A stretch of DNA of 48,209 nucleotides, taken from the NCBI GenBank assembly GCA_964524195.1, contig CAZGCC010000001.1, forward strand, positions 1 to 48,209, read 5' to 3'. The notes under the pieces are model-generated. The model did no database searches, was not told the DNA's origin, and saw only the letters and a list, made by a program, of their open reading frames with translations. Shown here piece after piece: positions 21,422 to 42,823 of this stretch. Numbering within the stretch: the first letter of the stretch is position 1; the number at the start of each line of letters is the position of its first letter. The position numbers and the translations under genes are program-made. Source of the DNA: an uncultured bacterium. Its GTDB lineage: Bacteria > Omnitrophota > Omnitrophia > Omnitrophales > Aquincolibacteriaceae.

Positions 21422-21459
21422 CCGTTTTTTGTCGAAAGAGCCTGAAAGGAAATCCCAAA

Positions 21460-22914: not shown

Positions 22915-22920
22915 AAACTA

Positions 22921-22955
22921 CCAGGGACGGTTCTCTTACGAAGAACCGTCCTTGG
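22921..22955. terminator. Long hairpin between convergent gapN and phoR; probable terminator for the minus-strand operon
   Basis: CCAGGGACGGTTCT / AGAACCGTCCTTGG forms a 14-bp stem with one G-U pair. A U-rich tract is present only on the minus-strand side (TAGTTTTTAG). Confidence 0.5.
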
Positions 22956-23013
22956 CTAAGATCCAAATAAACCGTCACCACTTCACCCTTTACACGCCTC
23001 AGGCGTGTAAAGG

Positions 23014-24786
23014 TCAGGCCGGGAAAAAAACGGAGAATCGCGAGCCTTGACCGGGGGTGCTTTGGCAGGAAGCATGGCCGCCGTGAGCTTCCATGATGTG
23101 CTTGACGATCGCAAGTCCCAATCCCGTGCCTCCGAGTTCCTTCGACCGCGCTTTATCCACACGGAAGAACCGTTCAAAGATCCGCTCCCGGACCTCTTCC
23201 GGGATGCCGGCGCCCGCATCCTCGATCGTGACCGTGACTCCCGAGGGGCTTTGACTCGCCGAAAGAACGATCCTTCCTTCCGGTTTATTGAATTTGATCG
23301 CGTTGTCGATGAGATTCATCAAAACCTGATGGACTTTATCCCTGTCTCCGGAGAGGAGAATAGGTTTTCCGGAGAGGAGATTCTCGACCGTGATCTTTTT
23401 TTCACGGATCTGCGTCTTGAGCTTTTCCAGGATGGTCAATAATTCCGGAGAAAGATCGATCGCTTCCTTCCTTAAGGGCGCAACGCCTTGTTCGATCTCA
23501 CCGAGCGTCAGGATGTCTTCGACCAGGCGGCCCAGACGGTCTGTTTCCTCCGAAATGATCTTGAGGAACCTTTCGCTTGTCGGGGCGTCCTTGAGCGCGC
23601 CGCCCAGGAGGGTTTCGATAAAGCCCTTGATCGAGGTGAGGGGAGTACGAAGTTCGTGGGAGACATTCGCCACGAATTCCTTCCGCATATTCTCGAGCCG
23701 GCGGAGTTCCGTCATGTCATGAAACACCAGGATGCCGCCGATCGACCGGACATGGGCATCGAGAACGATGACATTTGCATGAAGTGTTTTTTTTATGTTT
23801 CCCGAAAGCTGGATCTCGACGGCGGTGGTTTTCTGCTCTTTGAAGGCGCGGTCCACGATCCCCTCAAGCTGGGGATGGCGCGTGATCTCGATCAGGCCTT
23901 TTCCCTGCGCCTCAGGAACCGCGAAGCCAAAGATATTTTCCGCGGCCGGATTTGCCGTCACCAGCTGTTTCCGCCGGTCTATCGCGATCACGCCTTCCTT
24001 CATATGACCTAAAATGACCGAGATCTTGCCTTTTTCGGTCTCGAGATCCTCGATCCTGGAGGCCAGGGAGGAAGCCATTTGGTTCATGGTCTCAGCGAGC
24101 ATCTTGAGCTCATCCTGCCCGTCCATCAGGATCTTTTCAGACCAGTCTTCACGGGCATACCGTTCGGCGATCGAAGTGATGCGGCGAATGCGCTTTGTGA
24201 GACGATCGCTGAAGAAAATCCCGGCACCAAGAACGATCAGGATGCCCAGGAAGGCCGTGAGCATCACGGTCCGTCGGACCGAGTCCAGGATCTCATTGAC
24301 ATGCGTCACCGGCATCGCCGCGCGAACAACTCCGAGAACTTTTCCGCTCTCTGTTATGGGGACCGCGAGATAAAGCATTTTGGCTTTAATGGTCATGCTG
24401 TAACGGAGGCTCATGCCCGTTTCTTTCCTGAGAGCTGCCGCAATTTCGGGGCGGGTCGCGTGATTATCCATTTTTGCGAGAGCTTCGTCAGTTTCACTGG
24501 AGTCGGCAAGGATCATGCCCTCGGGATCGACGACCGTAATGCGCAGGCCGGTTTCTTCCGCGATCTTCCGGATCTCGGACCGGAGCCGGGGGGTATCCCT
24601 CAAGAGAGGGTTTGCGATCTCACGGATCAGGACCGACTGCCGTACAAGAGAGCTCTGAAGCTGCTGAAGGTCCCTTTTCTGGAGGACCGTAGAAAGCGTC
24701 CAGTCCGTCACCAGCAGGACGAGGATAAAGATGACGCCGTAGAGCACGAGGAGCCGCTTGGCAAAACCGATCTTGGAGAAGCTCAT
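23014..24786 (-). CDS. phoR: Sensor histidine kinase, PhoR-like (TM, about 150 aa extracytoplasmic domain, TM, HAMP, PAS, HisKA, HATPase)
   Basis: FVANVSHELRTPLTSIKGF, the DRDKV.QVL.NL..NA pattern, GTGLGLAIVKHI and GQGSRFSVFFP. ATG 24786 lies 1 nt after the regulator's stop, with an alternative ATG at 24798. Confidence 0.75.
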   Translation of the reverse strand: MSFSKIGFAKRLLVLYGVIFILVLLVTDWTLSTVLQKRDLQQLQSSLVRQSVLIREIANPLLRDTPRLRSEIRKIAEETGLRITVVDPEGMILADSSETDEALAKMDNHATRPEIAAALRKETGMSLRYSMTIKAKMLYLAVPITESGKVLGVVRAAMPVTHVNEILDSVRRTVMLTAFLGILIVLGAGIFFSDRLTKRIRRITSIAERYAREDWSEKILMDGQDELKMLAETMNQMASSLASRIEDLETEKGKISVILGHMKEGVIAIDRRKQLVTANPAAENIFGFAVPEAQGKGLIEITRHPQLEGIVDRAFKEQKTTAVEIQLSGNIKKTLHANVIVLDAHVRSIGGILVFHDMTELRRLENMRKEFVANVSHELRTPLTSIKGFIETLLGGALKDAPTSERFLKIISEETDRLGRLVEDILTLGEIEQGVAPLRKEAIDLSPELLTILEKLKTQIREKKITVENLLSGKPILLSGDRDKVHQVLMNLIDNAIKFNKPEGRIVLSASQSPSGVTVTIEDAGAGIPEEVRERIFERFFRVDKARSKELGGTGLGLAIVKHIMEAHGGHASCQSTPGQGSRFSVFFPA

Positions 24787-24787
24787 T

Positions 24788-25477
24788 TCAGGCTCCATCG
24801 AAGCGGTAGCCGACACTTTTAATCGTGACGATCCGCTCCGCTTCTTTTCCGAGTTTTTTCCGCAACTGCCCGACATGCATGTCGACTGTCCGCGTTTCGA
24901 TATTCACGGAATTCTCATAACCCCAAACTTTTGATAAAAGGACTTCGCGGGTCAAGACCCGCTCTTTGGAGCCCATAAGGACGCGCAAAAGCTCGAATTC
25001 TTTCGCCGTGATCTCGACGGATCTTCCTTTAAGGCGCAACTCATGTTTGGTCACATCCAGCTCGATCGTTCCGGACCGCAAAACCTGCTCCGGGGATCTT
25101 TCCTGCGACCGGCGGAGCACGGCTTTGACGCGCGCCACAAGTTCCCGGGGGCTGAAGGGTTTGGTGATGTAATCGTCGGCGCCAAGCTCAAGGCCGACGA
25201 CCCTGTCGGACTCCGTGCCTTTCGCAGTAAGCATGATGATGGGGGTAAGCCGTGTTTTCTCGTTTTGGCGAAGGGTTTTGCAGATCTCAAGGCCATTCAT
25301 TTCCGGGAGCATGAGGTCCAGGACCACCAAAGCGGGTCTTTCCCGCAGGGCGGTTTCAAGCCCGGAGCTGCCTTTTGTGGCCGTAAGGACGCGAAAACCT
25401 TCCTGCTCGAGATTGTATTTTACAAGCTCGAGGATATTTTTTTCATCTTCTACAACAAGGACGGTTTCGCTCGCCAT
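24788..25477 (-). CDS. phoB: OmpR/PhoB-family response regulator
   Basis: VLVVEDEKNI, the DLMLP..NG pattern, P.IMLTAKG.E.DRV.GLELGADDYITKPFS.RELVARVKAVLRR and a winged-helix C-terminus ...TVKSVGYRF. Confidence 0.8.
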   Translation of the reverse strand: MASETVLVVEDEKNILELVKYNLEQEGFRVLTATKGSSGLETALRERPALVVLDLMLPEMNGLEICKTLRQNEKTRLTPIIMLTAKGTESDRVVGLELGADDYITKPFSPRELVARVKAVLRRSQERSPEQVLRSGTIELDVTKHELRLKGRSVEITAKEFELLRVLMGSKERVLTREVLLSKVWGYENSVNIETRTVDMHVGQLRKKLGKEAERIVTIKSVGYRFDGA

Positions 25478-25795: not shown

Positions 25796-28700
25796 ATGCG
25801 GATAAAGCCGGGACTTTGCCTTGCGAGGTCTTTTCAAAAGATTTTTTTAAGAGGCGTTGCTCTTGCGACGCTGAAGTGTTTCGTTGTCACCAGCCTTGCT
25901 CTGGGGATTTCTCCTGAAGCGATCGCCGCAAGCTGGAGTAGTCCGCTTGCTCTCGTAAGCTCCTTGCCCTTTTCCGGGATCCCAAAAGAAATGGGAAAAC
26001 TTGACGGTGTTTTTGCGCCCCCGGTTGCAAACCGGTCCGTTTTCTTTTTGCACATCAAAGACGCCCATGCCTCGATGGAGGCCCAGAGGAATATCAACCG
26101 GATCCTTACAAGGTTGCAGCAAAGAAAGCAACTAGACCTTGTTTTAATAGAAGGCGCCGCGGGACCTCTCACCCCAGGTCGTTTGGATGTGTTTGATGAC
26201 GCGAAAAGGAATGACGCGTACAAGAAAGATCTCTTAAGTGCGGGCTTGTTAAACGGCGCAGCCTATTTTGCCGCTGGCCAAAAAAATGGCCTGGCTCATG
26301 GGTTGGAAGATTCCGCAGCGTATTTTGAGAATCTCAAAATCTTTCGCCAGATCGCCGCCTCGCGCGTTCTTAACGAGAAATTTTTTAACGCGATCGAAGT
26401 CGCGCTTTTCAACAGATCAAAGAACATTCTTAAGATGGAAGTGTTCGCGTTTCTTAAGGAGTGGAAGAGGCATCATCAAAATACATTATCCTGGGATCGG
26501 TACCTTTCGTTCCTGATCCGGAGTGCCGCGAAGTTCCTGGCTCTCGACCTTCGGGATTACCGCACGCAGGTCTTGTGGCCTCACTTGGTTCGTTATCACC
26601 GACTGGAGATCTTTTCTGAGCAGATCCGTTCCGATGCCGTTCAAAAAGAATACCGGAAGCTTGTCCAACGACTCGAAAAGGTCCGTGAGCCGGCCCTGGA
26701 AGAGACTTTGGCGCTGTTGTCTGCTACGGTGGAAAGCCCGGCAGCCCTTATCCGGGAAACGCCCGATTTTCGAAAATATGTGGAAGTGCTTGTAGAGGCT
26801 TGCTCTCGCGAAAGGATCCTGCTGCAACAGTTTCCGAACCTCGTTCGTTATCTGGCTTTCCGGATCTTTCGCTCCGAGATCGAACCCGAAGAATTGCTTC
26901 TCGAGGTGGGGCGGCTGGAAGATGCCCTTTTCGAAAAACTGTTCAAGGAAGAAAAGTCCCGGAATTTTATAGCGGCCTACCGCGACTTTTTTCTTCTCAA
27001 GCGGGCTTTTGCGCTGGAGCTTGACCGGGCCGAATCCAAACGCTTTGAAATCATGGATGTTTCAAAGAGGGTTCGGCTGCTTTCAAAGATCGCCCCAGGG
27101 CATGATCTGCAAATAGAAAATTTGATCCGCGGGGCGGATCTCGTGAAGCGGTTCTACAAGGCGGCCCAAAAACGCGACGGCGCCTTTGCGGAGCAGCTAA
27201 GAAAAGCCCTGGAAGGAGCGCAGGTTTTCCCGGATAGGCCCTTTTTCATTGTGCTTGTCACCGGGGGATATCATGCCGAGAGTCTCGAAAACTGGCTTCG
27301 TACCGAAAAACTTCCGTTCGCCAGCATTCAGCCGTTGTTTAAAGACGAGCCTAATAAAGAACGGTATGAAAACCTTCTTAGGGGCGATTACAGCGACTTT
27401 GATGCTCTTGCGACTCCGCAGGGCTCTATTCTCCCGGATGCGATCGCCGAAAAACTCATGGGAAAAGAGGCCCTCACAGCGTTTCGTGGAGCCGAGGCGC
27501 GTTTAGCGGCCAGGCAAACCCTTGGATCCGGAACATCCGGGGACCGACCCTTTCGGAGACCAGATGAAAATGTTTCGATCTTGCAGGATTCCGTTCGTTC
27601 TGAATCTGGAAAATCGACCTCCGGGAGAGATTTAACGATCGACAAATTCAAGGAGATCGCTGAAAAATGGCTTCGCCTTTTCAAAATCGAACAGATGTCC
27701 CCGGAGGAAATTCTCTTAGGCGAAAAAGAGCTTTCTGTAAAACTTTCTTTTGCCTCTGGGGCTGAGGGCTCCAATGAGCTCGATGCGTCACACCAGGCGT
27801 TAGAAATGATCCAGGAAGAAGCGGAAGCTTTTTTCTCTGGCTACTACGGACAGATCCACAGCAGTTCTTTGGAGCCCAACAAGGGGACGAAGGACCTCTC
27901 CTGGGTTCAACTCACGCTTCACCGGCGATCCGAGACTAGGGCTCTAGTGAAAGGCCTTGCCCGTTTGCTCATAGCTTTTGCGTTGGCGGGGACGATAAGC
28001 GGCTGTTCAACTTTGAGCCATGAAGCATTAAAAGAACAAATTCGCCAGGCGGAGCAGTATACGCTCCCTCAGAGGACGGTGGCGGTTCCAGCCTCGGTCC
28101 GGGTGAATGAGAAAAATCTTCTCGAAGCAATCCTTCTTAATGACCCCCAAGTCCGCCAGGCCGGGCTGAGGATTGCGATCCGCGAGACCGAAAAAGGGCG
28201 TCTCAAAGGAAGTTTTTCTTTGGAAACGCATTTTTCCTTGGTGGATGGGAAGCCTGTTTTTAGCGGAGGCGTCAGGGGGAGGGCCCCTTATCTTGGAGAA
28301 GTGGGGCTTCTGGGTCTTGGCGCGGGAAGCGTGGCAAGTCTGGCGTTGGAGTTGACGGGAGCGCTCGGTAGTTTTATTTCCGGGGAGCCTCTCTTGGCGA
28401 ACGACCTTGCCCAAAAACTTATCGAAGCGGCCCAGTTGCATCACCAAGATGTTATTGGAGAGCGTTACCTGGAATATGCTCGAATTGCCTTGGAGGTCAA
28501 GACGCTCCAGGATCAGCAGGCTCTGGCTGAGGCGACGGTCGCAGCCCTGAAGCATTCCTTGCAAATATCGCTTCAAAAAAGAGAAAGTTCCGAGCAGGAT
28601 CGCGCTCGGATCGAAACGCTATTGGATGAATGGAAAATGCGCTCCAATGATCTCGGGGCGGCTTTCCGTGAGAAGAGCTCCCGGTTGCTCGATCTTTATA

Positions 28701-31700
28701 TTCCGGAAGCTGCGGGAGAGAGCCGCTGGGGAGTCGATTTCTCCTACGCTGCCATGCCTCGGAACTGGAAAGTGACCCCCGCCATGACTCAAGATCTTGT
28801 AAATCGTGCAACTCAAAGGACAGGATCTCAATTGCCTTTGAATCGCGAATTGGCCGCGGCCTACAAAGCGCGCGAAGCGTCCATTGTAACCATGCTCCTT
28901 TCAAAAGCCCGTGACCGTTTCAGCCTGAGCATCGGAGGCCTTTTCCATGCGGACGATCTGGGAACGCCGCCATCCATGGATGATGACGCGAAAGGGGATT
29001 TCGATACGAATGCGGACAAAATAGTGGACCGGAGGACCGAAGACAAAAATTCGGTAAGAACCGGCTTTCGAAAAACTTTTGGCGGCGAAAGCGCCGCGGA
29101 TGTTCAGATGGCTTCTCATGAAGTTGAGATGAACGACAGTCTTCTTCAGGAGGTGGATCGCCGTGTGAGGCTGGAGATCGCCGAGCTGCTTTCCCGGATC
29201 GAACAAAAAAACAAAGAGATCGGGATCCTGGAACAAGCGGTCAGCAGAGATCGCGCGCTTTTGGAGAAAGCCCGAAAGATCTCTTTTGGCGGACAAACTT
29301 TATATCTTGAGGATCGTTTGTTCCCTCAGATCGACGCGATCGGGAAAAACGGAATCGCGCTTTTAAAGGCGCAGCAGGAACTGACCGTGGCCATTAAGCG
29401 CTTGGAAGTTCTTTCGGGGACCTTAGGCGGATTTTCATGGGGTCAGGCGAAGCGCTCAGAGGTTCGAAGCGCGGCATTTTCTTCTGCCGCGCAGCTGTTA
29501 CTGTTTAAAGGTTTTGAGAGCGCCGCGCTTGCTGTCCGGTCAGCTTCCGATTCTCGCCGGAGCGAATTTAGTCTTGAGCGGGATCTGGATAAAGCCTGGT
29601 CCCATTTGATTAAATTGCGGGCGGGTTTCGAATCAGAATTCTCGGGAGAGAAAGGTGCTCTCCATAGCCAGCATGTTTTCGGAAAGGCGAATGACCGGTT
29701 GCGTTGGGATATCGACAATGGGGTCTGTTTGACGGAAGAAGAACATAGGCGTCTTGCCCACGGAGGCCAGACAGACAGAGCCAAATTCTGGGACTGGGCG
29801 ATCCGGCGCATGTCTCCCGAAACGCTCGAACATTTACGGGACGCAATGTACGAACCGGAAAAGCCGGTTGACAGGAGAATTCTGCTCGCTCAATTCCGAA
29901 AAGAAATAGAAGCTCAAAAAAGACGTCTGAAAGAATCCGGGACTGTTGAGCTGTTGACAAAGGGGGGGCGTTCGGAAATACGAGGAAGTTTTTCGGCCAA
30001 ACAAAACGGTCCAAAGGGATCTTTTCCCTGGCGCTCGATGTTTGTTAAGGCGGTGATCGCGCTTTTCCTGGTGATCGGTTCTTTGCTTCCGTCATCAGCA
30101 TTGGCTGGTCAGGCGGAACCAGCAATGCATGCGACCCGCATGGTTCGGTCGGGGGCGTCAGGTTTTGGCGCGGCAGCGTCGTCGCTGGTTGTCGCCGGAT
30201 CCCAGGAAGCAGGCAAAAATTCCTTTGATGTGTTTGTTGAGGAAACGCTCAGAAAGATCCCGAACGATTCGGACCGGCCGTATTTGAAAGGCTATGCGCA
30301 AGGGCTTCGGGATATTTTGGATATCACCACTCCCGAAGGCCTTGAGCAAGCAAAAAGCAGTTTCGCGGAAAGAGCGGATATCTTTATGCCGGTTCCCCGA
30401 TGGTCTGATCCCGAATTGCTTCAGCAAGTTTCAAGAAGGCTGGAAGGGTTGTTGAGAAAAATCCCAAAAGAAAAAAGACCCGAGGTAATCCGGGAAATAG
30501 AAAATGCGAACATCGGTGATGAAATTCCGGTAACCGTCATAAAAAGCATCCGTCGCCATCACCATAAATCGTCATTTCCTGTTTTTAAAAAAACCGAAGC
30601 GCAAGAATCCATTCGCGTTACCCGAGAGCTTAAGGAAACCGTAGAAACAAGACAAATGATCGAAGACAGGATCAGTTCCCAAAGAGCTCAAATCGTTTCT
30701 GGACGGGCGCCTGCACTATCGGGAAGCGGAGTGGACACCGTTCCCCAGTGGAAGCCCGGCGAAGTTGTCATGCCGCCCACGGAATGGCCTGATTCTCCGG
30801 AAGTCACTGAATTGGACGGAGCGCTGGCTGAGTTTGACGGTTTTGTCATGCAGCTTCTTTACAAGATCCCCGATGCCGCCCGAAGAACGCAGCTTGTTCA
30901 GTATGCGGAAGGCCTGAAAGCCATGATCGTAAATCCGTCTTCTCTGGAACACGCCAAAATGCAGTTTTCCAAAAAAGTCGCACTCGACGGTATTTCAGAA
31001 GGCCTGGGGGCGATCGCCGCGGGCGGTCCTCTGGCGGCAGGAGCGGCGCTCGTGGAGGCTCCGGTTGTGGCTGCCCCTGAACAAATAATAATACAGCCAA
31101 CCATCTCCGGAGCGGAAACGGTTCCTCCAGCAAATATTTCTCCCGTGATGGCCATTCTTTTGCCGGAAGGTCGTTCCGGAGCTCAAGCGGAAAGTTCCAG
31201 TACCGCCCTTGAGATCTTAAGAGATTTTGCGGATGCTGCGCCTCCAGCGGCGGCGAAGTCCCAAGAAACCTTGGCGGACGATGAGGCCATGCTTCCGGAG
31301 GCATCCGAAGAAATATCAGTTTCTCTGGAGCCCCCAAGCATTCCAGGGCCTGCGCCCGTGATAGATAGCGCAGTTTCCAGGACTCAAAAAATTTCCGAGC
31401 CTGAACGGACCTCGACTCAAACAGGGCCCGTTCTTCCCGCCGTTTCCCATGGGCCGCAAGGTGTGATTTATGAATCAGAACGACCAGCCAAGTCCACGCC
31501 GGTTTTTTGGGATATGCAAGCGCCTTTCCCCGGAAAAACTCAGCATCTGGTGCGGGAAGGCGATGTGGTGAGACCAGGAGATGTTCAGGCGGAAATACAA
31601 GATCCTGAGCAGCGGCATGAAATACAAGGCTTAAAGGCGGCGATCGCAGGTATTGACCGGCAAATCCAAGGAAAAGGCAGTGTTCTGGGGCTGGATGAAA

Positions 31701-34700
31701 ATATTCGCTTGCGGTTTGAACGGGAAGAATTGGCCCGCAGACTTCGGCAGCTTGAGTATCAAGAAAGCCTGAGCGTCATTAAAGCTGGCCGGCCCGGAAG
31801 GATCGTGGAAATTCGCCGCGGCGATATTAATGCGGGAGGGATGGTGGTTCGTGCCGTTGCTTTGGATGCCGGCGAAGTGAGCTATTGGGTGCCGCGGGAG
31901 TATAGCGATTTTGATTATCCCGAATTAGGCTTAACAAACGGAACACCGCTTCGGGTTGTCGGCTATCGCATCGATGATATTGACCTCAATAGCAGCCAGA
32001 TACTTTTGACAGTCGCGTTTGTCGGCAAGGACGAAATACCAGCGGATGCTCGATACAAACTGACGCTGGTTAAAAACCCCTCTCAAGTTACTGCCCAATC
32101 CGAAGAGGCATCAGGCCATTTCTTTCATGCCCGAGTTCCTTCGAGGGAAACGGCAGCCATTTCCGTTGAAAAAGCCGACAATATCCCAGGAGCTCGTGCT
32201 CGGCCATCGGTTCCTGAAGGCAGTTTTGTTTCGGCGGGCCAGGGGGTAGGTATGGCGGATGCTCTGGATTACCTGCAATCTCAAAGGGATCCGGCGAAGA
32301 AGTTGGTAGGCCATGCTGACGAATTGGCACGGGTAAACCAACAGGAAATCCAGCTGCTTCCTGACGATGAAGTGCGTCAAATCCAGAAGGATGCGAGACT
32401 TCAATTAGCGGATCTTGAAGGTACCAGCCCCCAGCTTATTTTAAAAGCGCCTATTTCAGGCATCGCAACAGGTCTTTCGGACCTTGAGGGCGAGGTCGTC
32501 ATTCCAGGTAAAGTTACACGGGCTAAAGTCACCAGTACCAGGGTTTTTCTGGGAAGCGAGAGAGCTTATGAAGGAAATCTTGAGCTTAATGACGACTATT
32601 TGATCTCAGTGCCTCAGGAAAGCGTTCGAGAGGGAGATCCGGTTCTTGTTTCAACGCCCGCAAGGCGTCCGCTCGTGGGGAAAGTAATTAAAATCGTCCC
32701 GCTTGCAAACCGCAGCGTATGGCTTAAGGGACAAGAAGCGCTGATAATCGAGGTCAATGACCCAGAAATGTATTTGGGAGACAGAATGCCGGTGCGGCTG
32801 GATTTTGATCCACAAGTCATCGCGGCGGCCAAGGATGCAGCAGCAAATCCTGACGGGAATGCCCCCGTTTTAGCCGACTTTAAGGATGATTTGCCGGCGC
32901 CTGCGGCTTATGCGGTCCTTCAGAGCCCCGAAGACGAATTAAGTCTCGGGAAAATATGGCGTTTGACCCGCCACGAGGGGAACAGCCTTCAGAAGGTCGG
33001 CATGTGGAGATATTTCTTGGGGACAGCGGTCGGTTGGGCATTCCTTGGTAAGCTTGTCTGGGCGGGTTCGGGGAAGATCCTGATCTCGCTGGCGGCGGGC
33101 CTGGCGGCCTTGACGCTTTGGAACACCTTTTCGAATCTGTGGAGGCGGTTTTTCCCCAAAGAGATCGAAGATGAATCCAAGGATCTCGGCTCTGATATCC
33201 GGCGTCTTGCGCGAAGCCTGGAGATGGACAGTGCCAGCCTTTTCGGGAAAGAGGAAGAGGCCGAAGAGATCCTCCACGATATCATAGCGGCTTTGCATAG
33301 CTGGAATCAGCTCCTGCAGGAAGAGAGCCTTACTTCTGCCGACCTTTCAACGATGATGACGAAAGCCCAAGAGCTGGCCGGTAACAAGCGGCTCATGTAT
33401 TCCAAGAAACATTCCCAGAACATGGGCTATTTTAAGGAGGATGCCGCCGATGATTTCGTCCGGATCCATGAGATCATCGCCCGTTTAGCCATTTTGAGCG
33501 CCGCCAAAGCCTCGTTCGAGCTTAAGGTCAGGCCTTCCCGCGGTGCCGGGCTTGTCGAGGAAGAGAAGCTCCTGGATTTTCAGGAAAAAATGGAATATTT
33601 TGCCGAAGGACTCAATAATGCGTCCCAGGTCGGTTATAAGCTGTCGGCGATCGCGAATCCCACAGATCATTATCCTCCCAAAGTGATGCGGAACGGAAGG
33701 GCTCTGACCCTTTCCCATTTGTTCCAATGGATCCATAACCGATGGATTTTTTATACCTTCCCGGCGCTTCGGTTCCTGAATTTCTACGCCGTGGCGGTAT
33801 TCTTTCACAAAGGCGGGCGGCATGTACCGTTCCTCTGGGGAGCGGCGGATTACTATCATCACTATTACAATGCCATGAAAAAAGCGGGTGTCGATCTCGC
33901 CTCCACACCTTCGGATTTTGAGAAAGGATTCAAGGATGCTTTTTATAAAGAGGTGGATATTGAACACTGGCTACCCAGCAAAAAGCTGCATTATTATGGG
34001 CGCTATTACGCCTTGGTAGGATGGGTCATTTTTGCGATCCTGCCATGGTTTTTATCCCCGCTTCTCCTGTATCTTTCCGGGGTCGGGCTCATCGTGGGAA
34101 CGAGCATTCTCATGATCTGGAAAACGGTGCCGCTGTTTTACACATTTTTCCGTTACATGCTGCCTGTTGTAATGGGAAGCGAAAGCAAACACTACCGATC
34201 TAACCTGAAAGATATTGTCCGTCTTCGGCGCGAACGCTTGCGAAAACAGGCGGGTCTGTTGAGCGGGAAAAAGGAATCGCCCTTGCCGCCCCGGGGTTTA
34301 CCGTCTTCGGCTTCTGCATCTCAGGTTACAGAACCCGGCACCATTGCTTTGAAGGCCATGCAGCAAGCTTTGCTTCAGGCCGCAGAAAATGCCGAAGTGG
34401 AGATCATTGCGGTCCTGCCTCCCCGGAATGGAAACAATGACCGGGATATAGATCTTTTTGAGAAAAGGGTCCGTCACGATGAGGCATTAGCGCGCTTGGG
34501 GATTCGCACGGTCGAAAGCGATGGGAAGATTGCCGGGGAGGCGGGGCTCTTCTTCGCGGCCCGGTCCATCTCGGATGAGAATAAACCTTATAAGATCTAC
34601 TGGTATCCCAAGGGTTTTCCGAGCGAAGGGGTTCGTCTTGCTTCTGCGTTAGCGGTATTCAAATTTAATTTAGCAGAAGCTTTGCGTATGATCGATGCTT

Positions 34701-36976
34701 ACCGGAAACTCGGAGATTCCTTTGCGACGGTTGTTTTTCCGGGAGGGGAAATGGATACCAGCGTTACGGAAGCCACTGAAAATGGCAGCAATTTTGTGGT
34801 TCGAAGTCGTTACGAAAGTTTAAAAGAGATCCGCTCCAGGAACCTTCCCGTTCTTTTGGGGCATAACGGGACCACTCGCTTGAGAGTGGATCAGGTGATC
34901 TATAGCCCCGACGAACTGAAGGGGGCGATTAGCAAGGCAGATATTTCCATGGGAGCCCGGCGGTTTGATCTTTCAAATGATGAATTGAAGCAGATCCCGG
35001 TGCGGTCTGGTCCTCTCGCGATCGTGGCCAAAGACAGGGAAACTCAGGAAAAGATCGAGCAAGTCCTGGAGGTCTTTCAGCGGGGTACCGAAGAGCTTTC
35101 GGCGCGGTATGCCCCTTTTATGACCGATCTTTTGCAGGATGTTTTCAGTCCGGTGGCTGAATTTTTCCGTCAGTTCAATCCTGCGTCTCCCGAAACCCCA
35201 AGTATGAACCACCTGACCCAGCGGACGCTAGGGATGCCGGACGGCCGGATCGTCAATCCCTGGAACAAGTTGCACGGTAAGATCGCAACGCGGCTCCTGA
35301 CACTTTCGGCATCCGGCCGCAAAGCGCCTCTTCATGTCGAGGCGTTTATTCCGCCGTTCGTCGATTCCTTCCATCTTGAAAGTTCGAATTATGAAGGTAT
35401 TCTCAGCCAGCTTGTAAATCTTCACAAAGACTTTCCGGAACTGGTCGACCCGGTGATTTTAGAACGCCTTAAAGAAAGCCGTAAACGCGCCGCTTCGAAA
35501 ATTCCAGAAATCCTGATCTTTGAGGACGATTCAGGAAAAAAGGTTTACGCCACCAAAGAGGAAGGATACCGTCGGAAATTACGGGCTCTCGAGGTGGCGG
35601 GACTTGTTACCAAGGACGGCAAATTGGTTTTGCAGCGGCGGAGCAATCAGTCGGCAACAAATCCCGGGCGCTTGGATGTTTCATTTGCGGGACATCGTCA
35701 GCAGCAGGATGTTTCTTCGGAAGCGGCCGCCAAGCGGGAATTTTTAGAAGAGCTTTTGGCTGGCAGTCCGCTTTCCGTTCCTCTGAAGTTCGAAAAACTG
35801 AAAGATCATCGCTACGAGATCCCTCATGAGACACCGGGGAAAGGGCTGTTTCGCCGCAAGCATTCCGAGATCTTTCAGGTCCGTCTGGACGGTGAGTTCC
35901 AGTGGGGCGATTTCAAGCCGGCAGATAATGCCGTCGAAGTGGTTCCCATCGATCCTGGCGAGATCCCGCAGCTTTTAGCCGAGAAATCCGGCCAGTTCAC
36001 CCCACGCGCTTTTTCGCTACTTAAGGAAGTTTATCAGCAGCCGGATCTTGGTTTGGCGGGAATCCCTGCTAATCCTTCTTCTGTTCCTCCGCGCTCCGAA
36101 GTGAGAAACCCCAAAGAGGAAATCGGCCCGACAGAGGAGCTCTCTGATCTTGAAGAAATGAAAATCTTCCTACCCGAGACATCCGAAGCGATCCGTGTTC
36201 TGACGGCTATCCTTGTTGCTGAAAGGATCCTTGCCATTCGCGATGTTGGCTTTCTTTCCAGGCTGGAAGCTTCGCTCGAAGATACCGGCGCGATCTCTGA
36301 ACGCGTTGCGCCTGCTCTTGCGGCGCTATCCGGCGCCCATGATGTTTCATCAGAAACATTAAAAACGCGATTGGAGTTGCTGCTTCGCCAGAAACAAAGC
36401 CAAACCGCTACGGATGAGCGCATTGTTTTTCTGGATGCCGGGACAGTCCCTGCGGAATATTTCAAGAAGCTTTTGAGGTCTCAAGTTCCCGTAGTGGTCT
36501 TGTTCGATCGTCACCACCAAGCGCTTTATGAGCAGGCCGCCAAAGAACAATTGCGTGCCCAGGCGGGGAGCCATGTCATTTTAGTTTATACGCCGGATGG
36601 GGTGAGCTCTTTTGTCAAACGGGCGCTCCAGTCAGGCGATGCGCTTCTTACCGCTTCTCCGCGTCTGAACGCTGTTTTGACCCGCTTTCGAAGTCACGGG
36701 AAGGCGGATGACATTGCCCTTATCACGAGAGGGCGCGCTGAAAGCCAGAAGGTCGAATCCGATTATGTTGGCCACCGCTATTATTACGATGACGAAACAC
36801 TTCGGCTTGACCCGGAATTGATCTTTTACTCCTTGCAGCTTCTCCTGCGCAGCCCGGAGCTTTTCCGTTACGGGAAGGGACGGAATGCTCAGGATGCGGT
36901 CTCCCTGATAGGGCTGGTGCTCCAGCAGCTTGCAGCTTCCTTGAGAGGGGAGCAGGCAGCCAAAGTCGCAGCGTAA
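25796..36976 (+). CDS. Giant multi-module envelope protein (about 3,726 aa), function unknown
   Basis: One uninterrupted frame. ATG 25796 is preceded by AGGGTGAGGG, and GTG 25787 is an alternative start. It contains recognisable OMF-like, MFP-like, polytopic-membrane and Nudix-like segments (see the sub-features and findings). Confidence 0.85.
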   Translation: MRIKPGLCLARSFQKIFLRGVALATLKCFVVTSLALGISPEAIAASWSSPLALVSSLPFSGIPKEMGKLDGVFAPPVANRSVFFLHIKDAHASMEAQRNINRILTRLQQRKQLDLVLIEGAAGPLTPGRLDVFDDAKRNDAYKKDLLSAGLLNGAAYFAAGQKNGLAHGLEDSAAYFENLKIFRQIAASRVLNEKFFNAIEVALFNRSKNILKMEVFAFLKEWKRHHQNTLSWDRYLSFLIRSAAKFLALDLRDYRTQVLWPHLVRYHRLEIFSEQIRSDAVQKEYRKLVQRLEKVREPALEETLALLSATVESPAALIRETPDFRKYVEVLVEACSRERILLQQFPNLVRYLAFRIFRSEIEPEELLLEVGRLEDALFEKLFKEEKSRNFIAAYRDFFLLKRAFALELDRAESKRFEIMDVSKRVRLLSKIAPGHDLQIENLIRGADLVKRFYKAAQKRDGAFAEQLRKALEGAQVFPDRPFFIVLVTGGYHAESLENWLRTEKLPFASIQPLFKDEPNKERYENLLRGDYSDFDALATPQGSILPDAIAEKLMGKEALTAFRGAEARLAARQTLGSGTSGDRPFRRPDENVSILQDSVRSESGKSTSGRDLTIDKFKEIAEKWLRLFKIEQMSPEEILLGEKELSVKLSFASGAEGSNELDASHQALEMIQEEAEAFFSGYYGQIHSSSLEPNKGTKDLSWVQLTLHRRSETRALVKGLARLLIAFALAGTISGCSTLSHEALKEQIRQAEQYTLPQRTVAVPASVRVNEKNLLEAILLNDPQVRQAGLRIAIRETEKGRLKGSFSLETHFSLVDGKPVFSGGVRGRAPYLGEVGLLGLGAGSVASLALELTGALGSFISGEPLLANDLAQKLIEAAQLHHQDVIGERYLEYARIALEVKTLQDQQALAEATVAALKHSLQISLQKRESSEQDRARIETLLDEWKMRSNDLGAAFREKSSRLLDLYIPEAAGESRWGVDFSYAAMPRNWKVTPAMTQDLVNRATQRTGSQLPLNRELAAAYKAREASIVTMLLSKARDRFSLSIGGLFHADDLGTPPSMDDDAKGDFDTNADKIVDRRTEDKNSVRTGFRKTFGGESAADVQMASHEVEMNDSLLQEVDRRVRLEIAELLSRIEQKNKEIGILEQAVSRDRALLEKARKISFGGQTLYLEDRLFPQIDAIGKNGIALLKAQQELTVAIKRLEVLSGTLGGFSWGQAKRSEVRSAAFSSAAQLLLFKGFESAALAVRSASDSRRSEFSLERDLDKAWSHLIKLRAGFESEFSGEKGALHSQHVFGKANDRLRWDIDNGVCLTEEEHRRLAHGGQTDRAKFWDWAIRRMSPETLEHLRDAMYEPEKPVDRRILLAQFRKEIEAQKRRLKESGTVELLTKGGRSEIRGSFSAKQNGPKGSFPWRSMFVKAVIALFLVIGSLLPSSALAGQAEPAMHATRMVRSGASGFGAAASSLVVAGSQEAGKNSFDVFVEETLRKIPNDSDRPYLKGYAQGLRDILDITTPEGLEQAKSSFAERADIFMPVPRWSDPELLQQVSRRLEGLLRKIPKEKRPEVIREIENANIGDEIPVTVIKSIRRHHHKSSFPVFKKTEAQESIRVTRELKETVETRQMIEDRISSQRAQIVSGRAPALSGSGVDTVPQWKPGEVVMPPTEWPDSPEVTELDGALAEFDGFVMQLLYKIPDAARRTQLVQYAEGLKAMIVNPSSLEHAKMQFSKKVALDGISEGLGAIAAGGPLAAGAALVEAPVVAAPEQIIIQPTISGAETVPPANISPVMAILLPEGRSGAQAESSSTALEILRDFADAAPPAAAKSQETLADDEAMLPEASEEISVSLEPPSIPGPAPVIDSAVSRTQKISEPERTSTQTGPVLPAVSHGPQGVIYESERPAKSTPVFWDMQAPFPGKTQHLVREGDVVRPGDVQAEIQDPEQRHEIQGLKAAIAGIDRQIQGKGSVLGLDENIRLRFEREELARRLRQLEYQESLSVIKAGRPGRIVEIRRGDINAGGMVVRAVALDAGEVSYWVPREYSDFDYPELGLTNGTPLRVVGYRIDDIDLNSSQILLTVAFVGKDEIPADARYKLTLVKNPSQVTAQSEEASGHFFHARVPSRETAAISVEKADNIPGARARPSVPEGSFVSAGQGVGMADALDYLQSQRDPAKKLVGHADELARVNQQEIQLLPDDEVRQIQKDARLQLADLEGTSPQLILKAPISGIATGLSDLEGEVVIPGKVTRAKVTSTRVFLGSERAYEGNLELNDDYLISVPQESVREGDPVLVSTPARRPLVGKVIKIVPLANRSVWLKGQEALIIEVNDPEMYLGDRMPVRLDFDPQVIAAAKDAAANPDGNAPVLADFKDDLPAPAAYAVLQSPEDELSLGKIWRLTRHEGNSLQKVGMWRYFLGTAVGWAFLGKLVWAGSGKILISLAAGLAALTLWNTFSNLWRRFFPKEIEDESKDLGSDIRRLARSLEMDSASLFGKEEEAEEILHDIIAALHSWNQLLQEESLTSADLSTMMTKAQELAGNKRLMYSKKHSQNMGYFKEDAADDFVRIHEIIARLAILSAAKASFELKVRPSRGAGLVEEEKLLDFQEKMEYFAEGLNNASQVGYKLSAIANPTDHYPPKVMRNGRALTLSHLFQWIHNRWIFYTFPALRFLNFYAVAVFFHKGGRHVPFLWGAADYYHHYYNAMKKAGVDLASTPSDFEKGFKDAFYKEVDIEHWLPSKKLHYYGRYYALVGWVIFAILPWFLSPLLLYLSGVGLIVGTSILMIWKTVPLFYTFFRYMLPVVMGSESKHYRSNLKDIVRLRRERLRKQAGLLSGKKESPLPPRGLPSSASASQVTEPGTIALKAMQQALLQAAENAEVEIIAVLPPRNGNNDRDIDLFEKRVRHDEALARLGIRTVESDGKIAGEAGLFFAARSISDENKPYKIYWYPKGFPSEGVRLASALAVFKFNLAEALRMIDAYRKLGDSFATVVFPGGEMDTSVTEATENGSNFVVRSRYESLKEIRSRNLPVLLGHNGTTRLRVDQVIYSPDELKGAISKADISMGARRFDLSNDELKQIPVRSGPLAIVAKDRETQEKIEQVLEVFQRGTEELSARYAPFMTDLLQDVFSPVAEFFRQFNPASPETPSMNHLTQRTLGMPDGRIVNPWNKLHGKIATRLLTLSASGRKAPLHVEAFIPPFVDSFHLESSNYEGILSQLVNLHKDFPELVDPVILERLKESRKRAASKIPEILIFEDDSGKKVYATKEEGYRRKLRALEVAGLVTKDGKLVLQRRSNQSATNPGRLDVSFAGHRQQQDVSSEAAAKREFLEELLAGSPLSVPLKFEKLKDHRYEIPHETPGKGLFRRKHSEIFQVRLDGEFQWGDFKPADNAVEVVPIDPGEIPQLLAEKSGQFTPRAFSLLKEVYQQPDLGLAGIPANPSSVPPRSEVRNPKEEIGPTEELSDLEEMKIFLPETSEAIRVLTAILVAERILAIRDVGFLSRLEASLEDTGAISERVAPALAALSGAHDVSSETLKTRLELLLRQKQSQTATDERIVFLDAGTVPAEYFKKLLRSQVPVVVLFDRHHQALYEQAAKEQLRAQAGSHVILVYTPDGVSSFVKRALQSGDALLTASPRLNAVLTRFRSHGKADDIALITRGRAESQKVESDYVGHRYYYDDETLRLDPELIFYSLQLLLRSPELFRYGKGRNAQDAVSLIGLVLQQLAASLRGEQAAKVAA
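27941..29430 (+). other. Internal module: lipoprotein-type signal (lipobox LAGTISG-C, Cys codon 28004-28006) plus a TolC/NodT-like outer-membrane-factor region
   Basis: ALVKGLARLLIAFALAGTISGCS. About 475 aa follow, with two OMF-like half repeats (LLEAILLNDPQVRQAGLRIA...GSFSLETHFSL and NRELAAAYKAREAS...RFSLSIGGLF) and long helical stretches ending in ...AIKRLEVLSG. Confidence 0.55.
31500..32815 (+). other. Internal module: two tandem HlyD/membrane-fusion-protein-like units
   Basis: Unit 1: HLVREGDVVRPGDVQAEIQD, then coiled coil, then VIKAGRPGRIVEI..GD...GG.VV. Unit 2: VPEGSFVSAGQGVG, then coiled coil, then ILKAPISGIATG, VREGDPVLVS and GDRMPVRLDF. Confidence 0.55.
33002..34180 (+). other. Internal module: polytopic membrane block (about 6 hydrophobic helices) with Tyr/His-rich loops
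   Basis: WRYFLGTAVGWAFLGKLVWAGSGKILISLAAGLAALTLW, IFYTFPALRFLNFYAVAVFF and YYALVGWVIFAILPWFLSPLLLYLSGVGLIVGTSILMIWKTVPLFYTFFRYMLPVVMG. The loops carry ADYYHHYYN and LHYYGRYY. Confidence 0.6.
35590..35985 (+). other. Internal module: degenerate Nudix-fold domain
   Basis: VAGLVTKDGKLVLQRRSNQSATNPGRLDVSFAGHRQQQDVSSEAAAKREFLEELL follows the pattern KDGK.LLQ.RS..K...PG..D.S.GGH...GE....AA.RE..EE.G. The REFLEE core is kept, while the Gx5E spacing and the final Gly are altered. Confidence 0.5.
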
Positions 36977-37474: not shown

Positions 37475-37517
37475 TTTACAAATGCTTTACATGAGACCCC
37501 TCCGCAGGCGTTATAAT
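37475..37517 (+). promoter_or_regulatory. Pho-box-like repeat pair plus a consensus -10 upstream of the ROK-ppx-ppk1 operon
   Basis: TTTACAaatgcTTTACA with hexamer starts at 37475 and 37486. TATAAT at 37512 is 26 nt from the second hexamer start. No -35 match. Confidence 0.6.
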
Positions 37518-37547
37518 AAAAGCGTTATCTTGGAGAGCGGAGGGTTT

Positions 37548-38534
37548 ATGGCGAATAAAAAGAAGAAGTATATTTTGGGGATCGATCTAGGCGGGACCAA
37601 GGTTCTGATCGGGTTGCTCGATAAGAAGTTCAGGATCAGGAAAAGGGTCAAGCTGGAAATGGATGGCAACCGCGGGGAAAGGTTTTTCTTCAACAATCTT
37701 CTTGAGGGGATCGAGGAAGTGCTGGAGGAGACAGGGACCGGACTTAATAATATCTCCATGGCCGGCATCGGTTGTCCCGGCATTATCGATATCTACCGGG
37801 GGGTGGTTAAGGTTTCTTCCAATGTCTCTTTTTTCAAGAATTATCCTCTGGTTAAAAAGCTGAAAGCAAAATTAGGCATCCCTGTCTTTCTTGAAAACGA
37901 CGCGAATGCGGCGCTTTATGGCGAGCAGCAGTTCGGAGCCGCGCGAGGTTTCCGGCAGGTTGTGGGGGTTTTTCTTGGGACCGGGGTCGGAGGATCTCTC
38001 ATCCTGAACGGGCATCTTTACAGGGGCATCTCCGGAGGCGCTGGAGAGATCGGGCAAATGCTGGTGTCGATGCCGTCTTTTTCAAATTTCGAAGTTTCGC
38101 GCCAAAAAGTAGGCGCGCTTATAGGACGCAATGCCATCGCCTCCGAAGCCGGTTTTCTTTTGCTCAGGCAGAAATGCCCGCATCTCCTCGAAGAGATTGG
38201 ATACAATGTCAAAAAGATCCGCAGCGGAGCTCTCTCTCGCGCGATCAAGGCCGGCGATACTGCTCTCGAAAATCTGATTCGGAGCCGCGCCCGGTGGCTG
38301 GGGATCGCGCTGGCGAATGTAGTGAATGTCCTGAATCCGGAGCTGGTCGTTCTGGGGGGCGGGATGATGGAAGCCATGGGGAAGATCATTCTTCCTGAGG
38401 TTCGAAACACCATGGAGCTTTACACTCTGAAGCCGCTCATGCGCGATGTCCGGGTTGCAGCGTCCGCTCTTAAAGACGATGCGGTGATCATGGGCGCGGC
38501 AAAGCTGGTTTATGACCTTGCAAAGAGGTCTTGA
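37548..38534 (+). CDS. ROK-family sugar kinase (glucokinase-like) lacking the ROK zinc motif
   Basis: ILGIDLGGTKV, GIGCPG, ENDANAAL.GE and GGAGEIGQ. GGAGAGCGGAGGG Shine-Dalgarno before ATG 37548. Confidence 0.8.
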   Translation: MANKKKKYILGIDLGGTKVLIGLLDKKFRIRKRVKLEMDGNRGERFFFNNLLEGIEEVLEETGTGLNNISMAGIGCPGIIDIYRGVVKVSSNVSFFKNYPLVKKLKAKLGIPVFLENDANAALYGEQQFGAARGFRQVVGVFLGTGVGGSLILNGHLYRGISGGAGEIGQMLVSMPSFSNFEVSRQKVGALIGRNAIASEAGFLLLRQKCPHLLEEIGYNVKKIRSGALSRAIKAGDTALENLIRSRARWLGIALANVVNVLNPELVVLGGGMMEAMGKIILPEVRNTMELYTLKPLMRDVRVAASALKDDAVIMGAAKLVYDLAKRS

Positions 38535-38536
38535 AA

Positions 38537-40111
38537 ATGGAAAGAACGACGGCTGAAAAAGAAGCGCAAAAGCAGGTTGTTGCGGTGATCGATATCGGGA
38601 CGATCGCGATCCGGATGGTGATCGCGGAGGTCGGCACGAAGAACGAGATCCGGTATCTGGAGCAATTGCAAAAACCGGTCCGCTTCGGCAAAGATGTTTT
38701 TAAAACAGGGAGGCTAAGCAGCGCCTCGATGCGGCAGGGCGTCAATATCCTCCGGGATTTTAAGGTCGTCATTGATGCGTACGGGATCAAAAAGATCCAG
38801 GCGATCGCCACGAGCGCTGTTCGCGAAGCCCAGAACCGGGACAATTTCATCGATCAAATCTATGTGCGCGCGGGGATTGATGTGGAGATCCTCGACGGCC
38901 CCGAAGAGAACCGGCTGGAACTGATCGCCGTGGAACATGCTCTGGAAGGGAAAGTGGACCTTGAAAAAAGAAACTGTCTGATCGTGGAGGTCGGGTCGGG
39001 CAGCACGGAAATGATCCTTATGGACCAGGGACAGGTCAGCGTGACGCGGACCCTGCCGATAGGGTCTGTCCGGCTTCCCGAACAAGGAGCGGGCGGAAAA
39101 GAGGGGCCTGGGTTCATCCAGCGCGTTCTGAAGAAAAGCATTCGCGATATCGCCCAGAATATAGCCCGCGAAGTTCGAATGGAGCAGATCAGCACTTTCG
39201 TAGCCCTGGGGGGGGATATGAGGTTCGTCTCGCAGCAGCTTCTTCCGGAGACCCAGGACCGGTTCACCATTCTGGGAAAGAAGGAATTCTTGAATTTTGT
39301 GGGGCGCGTCGGGAAAATGACCCCTGAAGAGATCGCGGCGGAGTATTCTCTGGATTACGGCCACGCGGAATCTCTTTATCCGGCGCTTCTCTTTTACTCG
39401 AATTTCCTCAATGAGACCAAGGCTGAAGAGATCATTATCCCGAAACTGAGCATCCGGGATGGTCTCTTGCTTGAGATCGCGCAGCTTGTGTCCGGCTACA
39501 AGCGGACGGATGTTTCCAGGCAGGTCCTCAATTCCGCCCATCATCTCGGGGCGAAATATATGTATGACAAGGGACACGCGGCATGCGTTGCTTCTCTGTC
39601 GCTCAAGCTTTATGATCTGCTCGCCAAGGACCATGGCATGGGATCCCGCGAGCGCCTTTTGCTCGAAGTTTCCGGGATCGTGCACGATATCGGGACCTAT
39701 ATCTCGACCTCCGGACATCACAAGCATTCTTATTACCTGGTGGACGCTGCCGAGATCTTCGGATTGCGGCGCGCTTCCAAAAATATTGTCGCGAATGTGG
39801 TTCGCTATCACCGCCGCGTACCGCCCCGCGAGACACATGTTCCCTACATGTCGCTTGCGAAATCGGACCGCGCGATCGTCTCAAAACTCGCTTCCATTTT
39901 GCGGGTTGCGGACGCCCTTGACACGGCTCATCAGCAGAAGATCCGGTCCTTTACTTTAGAGCGCTCAGAAGACGCCTACGCGCTTTGGGTGCCCAAAGAG
40001 ATCGGGGATATTTCGCTTGAGCGGGAAAGTCTGCGCCGGAAGGGGGATATGTTCGCGGATGTCTTTGGCGCGCCGATCGAACTCAAGCAGGGCGTGGCGC
40101 CCTCGCTTTAA
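38537..40111 (+). CDS. ppx: Exopolyphosphatase / GppA family with a C-terminal HD domain
   Basis: AVIDIGT.AIRMVIAE, ATSAVREA.N, VEVGSGSTE and the HD region SGIVHDIGTYIS..GHHKHSYYL. The start is coupled to the ROK stop. Confidence 0.9.
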   Translation: MERTTAEKEAQKQVVAVIDIGTIAIRMVIAEVGTKNEIRYLEQLQKPVRFGKDVFKTGRLSSASMRQGVNILRDFKVVIDAYGIKKIQAIATSAVREAQNRDNFIDQIYVRAGIDVEILDGPEENRLELIAVEHALEGKVDLEKRNCLIVEVGSGSTEMILMDQGQVSVTRTLPIGSVRLPEQGAGGKEGPGFIQRVLKKSIRDIAQNIAREVRMEQISTFVALGGDMRFVSQQLLPETQDRFTILGKKEFLNFVGRVGKMTPEEIAAEYSLDYGHAESLYPALLFYSNFLNETKAEEIIIPKLSIRDGLLLEIAQLVSGYKRTDVSRQVLNSAHHLGAKYMYDKGHAACVASLSLKLYDLLAKDHGMGSRERLLLEVSGIVHDIGTYISTSGHHKHSYYLVDAAEIFGLRRASKNIVANVVRYHRRVPPRETHVPYMSLAKSDRAIVSKLASILRVADALDTAHQQKIRSFTLERSEDAYALWVPKEIGDISLERESLRRKGDMFADVFGAPIELKQGVAPSL

Positions 40112-40117
40112 GCGACC

Positions 40118-42181: not shown

Positions 42182-42717
42182 AAAGGATCATCGCCTCCGG
42201 ACTGACCGTGTTCTTTTTTTGTTCTCTGGCGTTCGCGGGCCCGGCATTGGACCAAGATGCAAAGCTGAAGAGCGCGGAAAAACCGCTAAAGGCCGATTTG
42301 ACGCTTGTCGCTTCTCCGATCTGGGCCAGAAGCATTAAAGCGGGCGGCACGGTCAACGCGCTTGAAAAGCCCGCGGACGAAATGCCGCCCGTGTGGACTT
42401 CCGTTCTTTTCCGTGTCGAAAAAGTCCTGTCGGGAGAGTTCAAGATTCCCAAGAGCCAGGAGATCTCTTTATGGAGCCAGATGAAAGACGCCGCGGAGGA
42501 CAAGAACCTCCTCAAGCTTCTGACCATGGATTTTGAAAAACCCGCAGAGGACGGCGACGACAAAGAATGGCTTTCGATCGCGGTGATCGATCCCTACGCT
42601 TCATTCGGCGTCCGTGAAGGGGAGCCCCCCGCCTCTCGCCAACGCTACAAACTTTCTCTCGCCCAAGTCCATAAAGATCCCGACAGTTTTATTCTCGTGA
42701 AAAGCGAAAAGCTTTAA
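42178..42717 (+). CDS. Hypothetical secreted protein, translationally coupled to ppk1
   Basis: ATGA overlap with the ppk1 stop. GGGAG Shine-Dalgarno. Signal peptide ...SLAFA|GP. No family recognised. Confidence 0.6.
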   Translation: MKRIIASGLTVFFFCSLAFAGPALDQDAKLKSAEKPLKADLTLVASPIWARSIKAGGTVNALEKPADEMPPVWTSVLFRVEKVLSGEFKIPKSQEISLWSQMKDAAEDKNLLKLLTMDFEKPAEDGDDKEWLSIAVIDPYASFGVREGEPPASRQRYKLSLAQVHKDPDSFILVKSEKL

Positions 42718-42823
42718 AAGAACCATCAACAAAAACTTTGGCTCATCCCGGAAGATTTGATTTCTCGAGGCGCAAAGATTACAATCAACCGTCAAAGAGT
42801 CGTGGCATAACACCAACCCAAGG

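Follow-up and report, generated by a model that had tools for sequence, protein, structure and literature searches.

The window analysed here is the whole of a 48,209 nt stretch of DNA from an uncultured Omnitrophota bacterium (contig CAZGCC010000001.1, assembly GCA_964524195.1). It carries a giant open reading frame (ORF) of 3,729 amino acids (aa) in which a short motif, R-S-E-x-R (RSExR, or RSE.R as a search pattern), lies at the junctions between five modules, designated A to E (Table 1). That the motif is a real, selected junction element is a near certainty. The giant ORF itself appears to code for a cellular polyprotein that is cut at RSExR, a reading to which we give a probability of roughly 55%, with cleavage argued from the topology of the modules, from the behaviour of the material between the motifs as cassettes and from a depletion of SExR elsewhere in the chain. 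As would be expected of a polyprotein, autonomous modules are found in one uninterrupted ORF with a short conserved motif at every junction; the modules are regarded as autonomous because module C belongs to a family of stand-alone proteins, modules A, B and D have signals of their own, and HATPase_c and NUDIX modules are delimited by the motif. The initial annotation of this DNA had proposed that the motif could be a protease recognition or processing site, or else an inter-module linker, and its conservation at the junctions lends support to that proposal.

The RSExR motif in the giant ORF

The four RSE[TVI]R pentapeptides reported previously are all present and in frame with the giant ORF, namely RSETR between modules A and B (J1), RSEVR at the end of module B (J2), RSEIR between modules C and D (J3) and RSEVR between modules D and E (J4). 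Directly after RSETR there is a lipoprotein signal, ALVKGLARLLIAFALAGTISGC, possessing a lipobox with its Cys, and a Sec-type signal, MFVKAVIALFLVIGSLLPSSALA, is located 18 residues past RSEIR; both had been described correctly, as had three extra RSE tripeptides (RSEIE, RSESG and RSEFS). The last of these, RSEFS, is at 29558-29572 (aa 1258), 30 residues past J2 in the N-terminal extension of module C, where conservation is poor. The final Arg is missing from it, and it may be a decayed junction motif.

The protein contains 7.5% Arg, 7.6% Ser and 8.2% Glu, all within the 7-9% that had been estimated for each. On this composition 0.13 copies of RSE.R would be expected against the four observed, and none of 20,000 shuffles reached four. 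Chance recurrence is thus unlikely, as had been claimed, with the caveat that this single-protein enrichment test is post hoc and that other patterns with three copies show similar observed to expected ratios. Relaxing the pattern to RS..R, R.E.R or.SE.R adds no site to these four in the window protein. No flank similarity or internal repeats were identified around the four motifs, and as the copies differ in their codons and have dissimilar flanks, what recurs is a peptide motif and not a DNA repeat.

Conservation of the motif among relatives

In ten proteins of the giant-ORF family, amounting to 34 kaa (thousand aa), RSE.R occurs 37 times against 1.08 expected, and it is the sole 4-of-5 residue pattern with at least three copies in every one of the nine full-length members. 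These comparative data are the decisive evidence for the motif. Together with its orthologous positions they refute chance, or a compositional artefact of Arg/Ser/Glu-rich linkers, as its explanation, one for which the three-copy patterns with similar ratios within the one protein could have been cited.

A test named beforehand was whether orthologous giant ORFs have the motif where the window protein does. The test was passed for J1, J2 and J4 as well as for the site before the module D signal. At J1, RSE.R is at the orthologous position in seven of nine relatives, the two others having the variants RYEAR and RAEVR. At J2, the end of the outer-membrane-factor (OMF)-like module, the motif is at the aligned position in all nine, and an equivalent of J3 is present in relatives upstream of the module D signal peptide. 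J4, which precedes the C-terminal module by lying about 40 aa upstream of its core, is present in nine of nine full-length relatives, and among further loci 14 of 16 have it. The modules flanking J2 and J4 are only 23-40% identical between relatives, and local alignments show no invariant block other than the motif within the variable, gap-rich linkers. RSE.R was also identified at extra junctions that are lineage-specific. In 34 of the 37 copies x is one of L, V, I, A, M and T, and the only bias in the flanks is towards G, P or S at -1 and A, S, G or N at +1. One-off variants of the motif occur at chance rates when judged by shuffles within 100-aa blocks.

The initial annotation had held that the motif being common throughout the proteome would count against it. 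The sample available gives no sign of this, as proteins encoded next to the giant gene in these genomes, 43-53 kaa in all, have two copies, which is the chance rate. One of the two is RSEIR in the neighbouring histidine kinase of the window (ORF 23014..24876) at residue 99 (24568-24582, - strand), within TPRLRSEIRKIAEE. It is probably unrelated, one background copy being what chance predicts.

At the nucleotide level the motif is encoded in various ways, with CGN or AGR codons for Arg1, GAA or GAG for Glu and all six Arg codons for Arg5, and this variation in synonymous codons points to selection on the peptide. The motif Ser codon is TCN in 25 of 25 cases, as is expected of a serine that must never be lost. 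Two candidate signals in the codons were rejected. A pause at a rare codon for the last Arg would suit the window (AGG, CGA, CGA and AGA), yet relatives freely use CGG, CGC and CGT, and as regards a TCG-specific nucleotide signal, TCG is common in some lineages only and occurs in one of eight motifs in the window plus locus L025.

The same codon data bear on the idea that the motif is a relic or a tool of separate translation, whether through internal starts, a remnant intergenic or ribosome-binding sequence, or 2A-like bond skipping. Although a Met is often found between the motif and the following signal peptide, and the DNA of the motif is rich in purines, several junctions lack any in-frame start codon (ATG, GTG or TTG) within 40 codons (J2 in the window; aa 2332 in L004), no junction has a consistent Shine-Dalgarno sequence at a proper spacing, and codons that vary while the peptide is invariant are the opposite of a signal at the RNA level. 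Separate translation is thus a very improbable explanation. RSExR is unlike 2A (NPGP) and unlike any arrest peptide that we know of. Scans for promoters and terminators within the ORF gave background level only.

Evidence for and against cleavage

A strongly hydrophobic segment is present within 50 aa downstream of 11 of the 37 motifs, compared with 6.2% of random positions (p about 1e-5). By the standard Sec/Lsp rules an uncut chain would be impossible, because an exported module A, an in-to-out lipoprotein signal on module B, a signal-less module C and an in-to-out signal on module D conflict with one another. With module A exported, the next hydrophobic segment would have to cross out-to-in, against its positive n-region and lipobox.

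Outside the junction motifs, SE.R occurs three times in 33 kaa of family sequence against 13.8 expected (P 6e-4), a depletion of about five-fold, and one of these three remaining copies is the junction variant HSEAR. The control patterns SE.K, TE.R, AE.R, SD.R and SE.L are not depleted in the family, and in neighbouring proteins SE.R shows no significant depletion (7 against 10.9). Such avoidance of SE.R away from the junctions fits a destructive event such as cleavage.

In the mechanism proposed here, modules A, B, C, D and E would be several complete proteins translated as one chain and joined by flexible linkers each with R-S-E-x-R, and RSExR would most likely be the recognition site of a putative dedicated endopeptidase. 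The chain would be cut in the cytoplasm during or soon after translation, whereupon downstream modules would expose their own N-terminal lipoprotein or Sec signal and be exported separately, and modules with no signal would remain cytoplasmic. At those junctions that are just upstream of a signal sequence, the cuts by the protease and by signal peptidase would cooperate. As to the bond itself, a cut between the second Arg and a small residue next to it is no more than a guess.

A number of points weigh against cleavage. The SExR depletion test is post hoc, the pattern being one of about 24 that were tried. Profile scans recognised no peptidase domain in the polyprotein, its relatives or the neighbouring genes, and module A, a weak lead only for the cutting enzyme, carries an export signal of its own, which is awkward for a protease acting in the cytoplasm; its link to the Tiki/TraB/ChaN superfamily is also one without significant statistics. 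J4 parts two presumably cytoplasmic regions, where topology alone requires no cut. The assignment of module B as an OMF is borderline (21.8 against 22 bits).

The situation at J4 and the lack of a recognised protease would also suit an uncleaved RSExR which serves as a docking or assembly motif, with a partner such as module A or E, a chaperone, SecA or the signal recognition particle (SRP) organising the intact chain, and so would the shortness of the motif, its place in flexible linkers and its conservation as a peptide. On the other hand, the uncut chain would clash with the lipobox and the in-to-out signals after J1 and J3 and with the exported modules A and B, SExR would have no cause to be depleted five-fold inside modules if the motif were harmless, and the cassettes described below are complete as stand-alone proteins elsewhere, which fits release better than tethering. 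Docking is regarded as unlikely.

Exchangeable cassettes between the motifs

Over 300 small stand-alone proteins of ~130 aa match the giant protein end to end, and do so only at aa ~1255-1390, which corresponds to module C. In the module C alignment W, K, HH, N-G and H are invariant. The module C of the window has no Pfam match, and matches among its relatives are weak, with six of 22 matching HNH_2 (best E 2.8e-4) and three of 22 matching HNH. The zinc-binding Cys pairs are changed to Ser in the window (SEFSG in place of CEYCG). Module C is present in this lineage only and has a family of stand-alone proteins, and may thus be a gene of mobile or phage type that was captured in frame between two of the motifs.

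What separates J2 from J3 differs among the relatives. P0155 lacks this interval, P0154 has a 90-aa spacer, P0152 has a module with multiple transmembrane (multi-TM) segments, and both P0158 and P0008 have a HATPase_c module, the HATPase_c domain of P0008 (1683-1795) sitting between RSEAR at 1390 and RSEQR at 1801. The sequence from one motif to the next acts as an exchangeable cassette (HNH-like, histidine-kinase-like or multi-TM), swapped exactly at the motifs.

The HATPase_c cassettes of some relatives, the two-component system which is a conserved neighbour of the giant gene, and the strictly invariant, TCN-encoded Ser could also be taken to mean that RSExR is a site of post-translational modification (Ser phosphorylation or Arg modification) that regulates the linkers. 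This would leave the topology conflict unsolved, the HATPase_c cassettes are missing from most members, the window included, and there is no Ser/Thr kinase or phosphatase among the neighbours, making modification an improbable role for the motif.

A variant of the motif was noted in P0135 (L010 7628-14476, 2,282 aa), a protein with module A first, followed by sigma-70 region 4 and a metallo-beta-lactamase/beta-CASP domain. R.ENR is present three times (0.03 expected) along with RHETR, these being at domain borders by reading of the sequence and the Pfam list. It is possible that P0135 represents a second polyprotein family with a variant motif, and on this single example the rule could be a wider one, R-x-E-x-R. 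The idea that P0135 has module E as its second constant end was rejected (hhalign probability 0.6%).

Comparison with known systems

The closest analogues of the giant ORF would seem to be viral polyproteins, those of the flaviviruses especially, and the MARTX toxins. In the flavivirus polyprotein, NS2B-NS3 cuts dibasic sites and host signal peptidase cuts internal signal sequences. Like it, the giant ORF holds autonomous proteins in one ORF with a recurrent Arg-containing junction motif, some of its junctions are just upstream of internal signals, and the site is apparently avoided elsewhere in the chain. However, the giant ORF is a chromosomal, syntenic and vertically inherited bacterial gene with no recognised protease domain, and its exported modules are without the pairs of stop-transfer and signal helices of the flavivirus type. 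We know of no viral protease site that RSExR matches.

MARTX toxins, which are found in Vibrio and its relatives, have variable effector cassettes between conserved ends, and these are released by a cysteine protease domain within the toxin whose cuts in the linkers fall after Leu. The giant ORF shares with them conserved terminal modules, exchangeable cassettes and short linker motifs, with a repertoire that differs between close relatives. It differs in having no RTX repeats and no Peptidase_C80 (Pfam, whole ORF as well as P0007 and P0008, E <= 0.01), in its motif, and in its modules, which are of an envelope or cytoplasmic housekeeping type with their own signal peptides and not effectors delivered to a host.

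Other bacterial proteins that are cut at recurrent short motifs into several functional pieces are the gingipain/HagA polyproteins of Porphyromonas gingivalis, cut after Arg or Lys, and the adhesins of Mycoplasma hyopneumoniae, cut at S/T-X-F↓X-D/E. These are surface or secreted proteins which are processed outside the cytoplasm and have one function, whereas the pieces of the giant ORF have separate signals and unrelated predicted functions. Polyprotein processing is textbook knowledge in the case of viruses and of a small number of bacterial toxins and adhesins. To our knowledge it has not been described for chromosomal genes of ordinary envelope and cytoplasmic proteins with separate targeting signals.

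Giant proteins of 10-150 kaa tied to C39 and S8 peptidase domains have been reported in the Omnitrophota (West-Roberts et al. 2023, 10.1101/2023.11.21.568195; 2026 preprint, 10.64898/2026.06.07.730766). Their cleavage was proposed, with the cut points stated to be unknown (10.1101/2023.11.21.568195; 10.64898/2026.06.07.730766), and the 2026 study discarded internal signal-peptide calls as artefacts (10.64898/2026.06.07.730766). The giant ORF resembles these proteins in coming from the same phylum and in being a very long multi-domain ORF with membrane segments. It differs from the Archaeovorin and Dockerin types, which exceed about 10-30 kaa and have C39/S8 domains, in that its family is 3.5-5 kaa in length and has no such domains. 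The literature search found no junction motif for Omnitrophota giant proteins, no description of RSExR and no Omnitrophota polyprotein of this kind.

If cleavage at RSExR is correct, there would for the first time be a concrete and testable rule for where very long Omnitrophota proteins are cut, and annotation should split such ORFs at the motif before the prediction of domains, topology or structure. It also suggests that very small cells could make the parts of a machine in a fixed ratio and in one place, and that new genes could be added to an operon-like unit with no regulatory sequence. A broader and more tentative proposal, which we hold to be somewhat short of an even chance, is that, in a free-living or episymbiotic bacterium, an envelope-spanning apparatus and its cytoplasmic partners are made as one chromosomal polyprotein, which a dedicated protease cuts at RSExR to expose the export signal of each piece, with the junctions acting as in-frame landing sites for foreign genes (HNH-like, kinase-like and membrane cassettes) whose products would still be released; the same rule, or its R-x-E-x-R variant, may mark cuts in other multi-module proteins of the Omnitrophota.

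Features of modules A, B, D and E

Table 1. Location of the giant ORF, its modules, junction motifs and flanking genes in the window
Feature	Position	Strand	Remarks
Conserved gene neighbourhood	14022-25477 and 37482-45025		flanks the giant gene
Giant ORF, 3,729 aa	25787..36976	+	multi-module; uninterrupted orthologues in independent assemblies and conserved synteny
Sec-type signal peptide or anchor, module A	25796..25933	+	positive n-region, hydrophobic core, AxA-like end; conserved in homologues
Module A, alpha/beta core and large helical insert	25796..27925	+	alignment; AF2 model pLDDT 72
Junction motif J1, RSETR (A/B)	27926..27940	+	aa 714
Lipoprotein signal peptide, module B (ALVKGLARLLIAFALAGTISGC)	27941..28006	+	sequence
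Module B, outer-membrane-factor-like lipoprotein	27941..29452	+	weak OEP match 28985-29308; conserved in all relatives
Junction motif J2, RSEVR (end of B)	29453..29467	+	aa 1223
Module C, lineage-specific HNH-like cassette	29468..29968	+	alignment, HMMER
Junction motif J3, RSEIR (C/D)	29969..29983	+	aa 1395
Module D	29984..36091	+	signal peptide, long part, membrane segments, NUDIX part
Sec-type signal peptide, module D (MFVKAVIALFLVIGSLLPSSALA)	30038..30106	+	strongest hydrophobic segment after a motif
Module D membrane segments	about 33005-33121, 33746-33805, 34013-34150	+	hydrophobicity
NUDIX domain in cytoplasmic part, end of module D	35594-35953	+	Pfam
Junction motif J4, RSEVR (D/E)	36092..36106	+	aa 3436
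Module E, conserved C-terminal module	36107..36976	+	YVGHRYY, LRLDPEL and LLLRSPELF blocks; ..AA tail

Module A possesses the invariant residues D38 and H40 (QDAH), E68 and G69 (LEGA), R409, and G439, G440 and H442 (GGYH), and is weakly TraB/Tiki/ChaN-like, being a candidate hydrolase only. Its Pfam matches are weak and inconsistent, with PF04187 matching two of 11 members (best E 1e-3) and PF01963 one of 11 (E 0.035). Foldseek with the AlphaFold2 (AF2) model of module A gave no significant match, the erythromycin esterases EreC and BcR135 appearing at E 0.9-3, and hhalign against E. coli YbaP aligned the R...GGxH motif but at E 0.35. Module A resembles the signature of the TraB/PrgY/Tiki/ChaN/erythromycin-esterase superfamily, which we take to be paired His motifs with a conserved Glu and Arg, except that its first motif is DAH and not GxxH. 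PDB sequence searches with modules A, D and E found no match.

A stand-alone homolog of module A, P0164 (L011 8001-11423, 1,140 aa), has a C-terminal extension with a motif of the HExxH type (HEIFH), and adjoins a histidine kinase and a 1,008-aa protein of unassigned function. P0164 is a possible link of module A to metalloprotease-like sequence.

The lipobox of module B reads LAGTISGC in the window, and a lipobox Cys is present after J1 in seven of eight aligned relatives. The module matches PF02321 over one stretch with an E-value of 1.9e-4 (21.8 bits against a 22-bit cut-off).

The long part of module D which follows its signal peptide is presumably periplasmic. The NUDIX match (PF00293) at the end of the module is above the gathering score (29.3 bits against a 21.1-bit cut-off, E 1e-6), and in the relative P0007 there is a weak barrel of the Biotin_lipoyl type. 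In a 99.9% identical JGI contig (Ga0207193_1003705), the 107 nt after J3 that encode the module D signal peptide (29991-30097) are replaced by 'aag' (L001 14196-14198), which leaves a stop two codons past RSEIR (…RSEIRGS-stop). The frame is shifted in that contig, module D is called as a separate gene with no signal, and mismatches cluster just downstream. The indel could be either a real split allele at the junction or an assembly artefact.

Module E has no Pfam or PDB match, its AF2 model is of low confidence (pLDDT 55) and its Foldseek results are not significant. All the full-length members end in small, nonpolar residues (VAA, SAV, SAA, TAA, RAA, ASA, TMA, TAA and QAA), the C-terminus in the window being …AAKVAA at 36962-36973. 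These tails resemble those recognised in the ssrA system or by tail-specific proteases, and may be a second conserved signal.

The giant-ORF family and its genomic context

The giant-ORF family originates from Candidatus Omnitrophota metagenome-assembled genomes (MAGs), as seen by cluster look-up and a genome scan of the long relatives. Its full-length members have 3,526-5,080 residues, and the nine full-length relatives share 23-62% identity. The family came to light because an exhaustive HMMER search was used, giving eight long relatives of 24-45% identity, word-index searches being nearly empty. These returned the JGI contig as the sole match, the ones with the junction region, module A or a module A profile giving next to nothing; a genome scan using the single window protein gave none. 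For the locus scan, the module A alignment was too divergent to serve and the module E alignment succeeded. Locus L024 was rejected as a family relative, being unrelated. Pfam and NCBIfam searches of the whole ORF identified a borderline OEP in the second module, NUDIX near the C-terminus and almost nothing else.

The giant ORF, whose likely start codon is the ATG at 25796, is open and unbroken in several independent assemblies, and the synteny around it is kept even with a 28%-identical orthologue, so that it must be part of the chromosome and passed on vertically, and does not stem from faulty assembly. The upstream order is aconitase, citrate synthase, a gene of the ATP-grasp/GSP_synth type, DUF2203, DUF4139, aldehyde dehydrogenase and a divergent histidine kinase/response regulator pair, after which comes the giant gene; downstream there are ROK kinase, Ppx, PPK1, TPR proteins and PPK2. 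Rfam and tRNA scans of the window were empty. The constant link of the giant gene to polyphosphate genes and to a two-component system may be a hint at its regulation or function.

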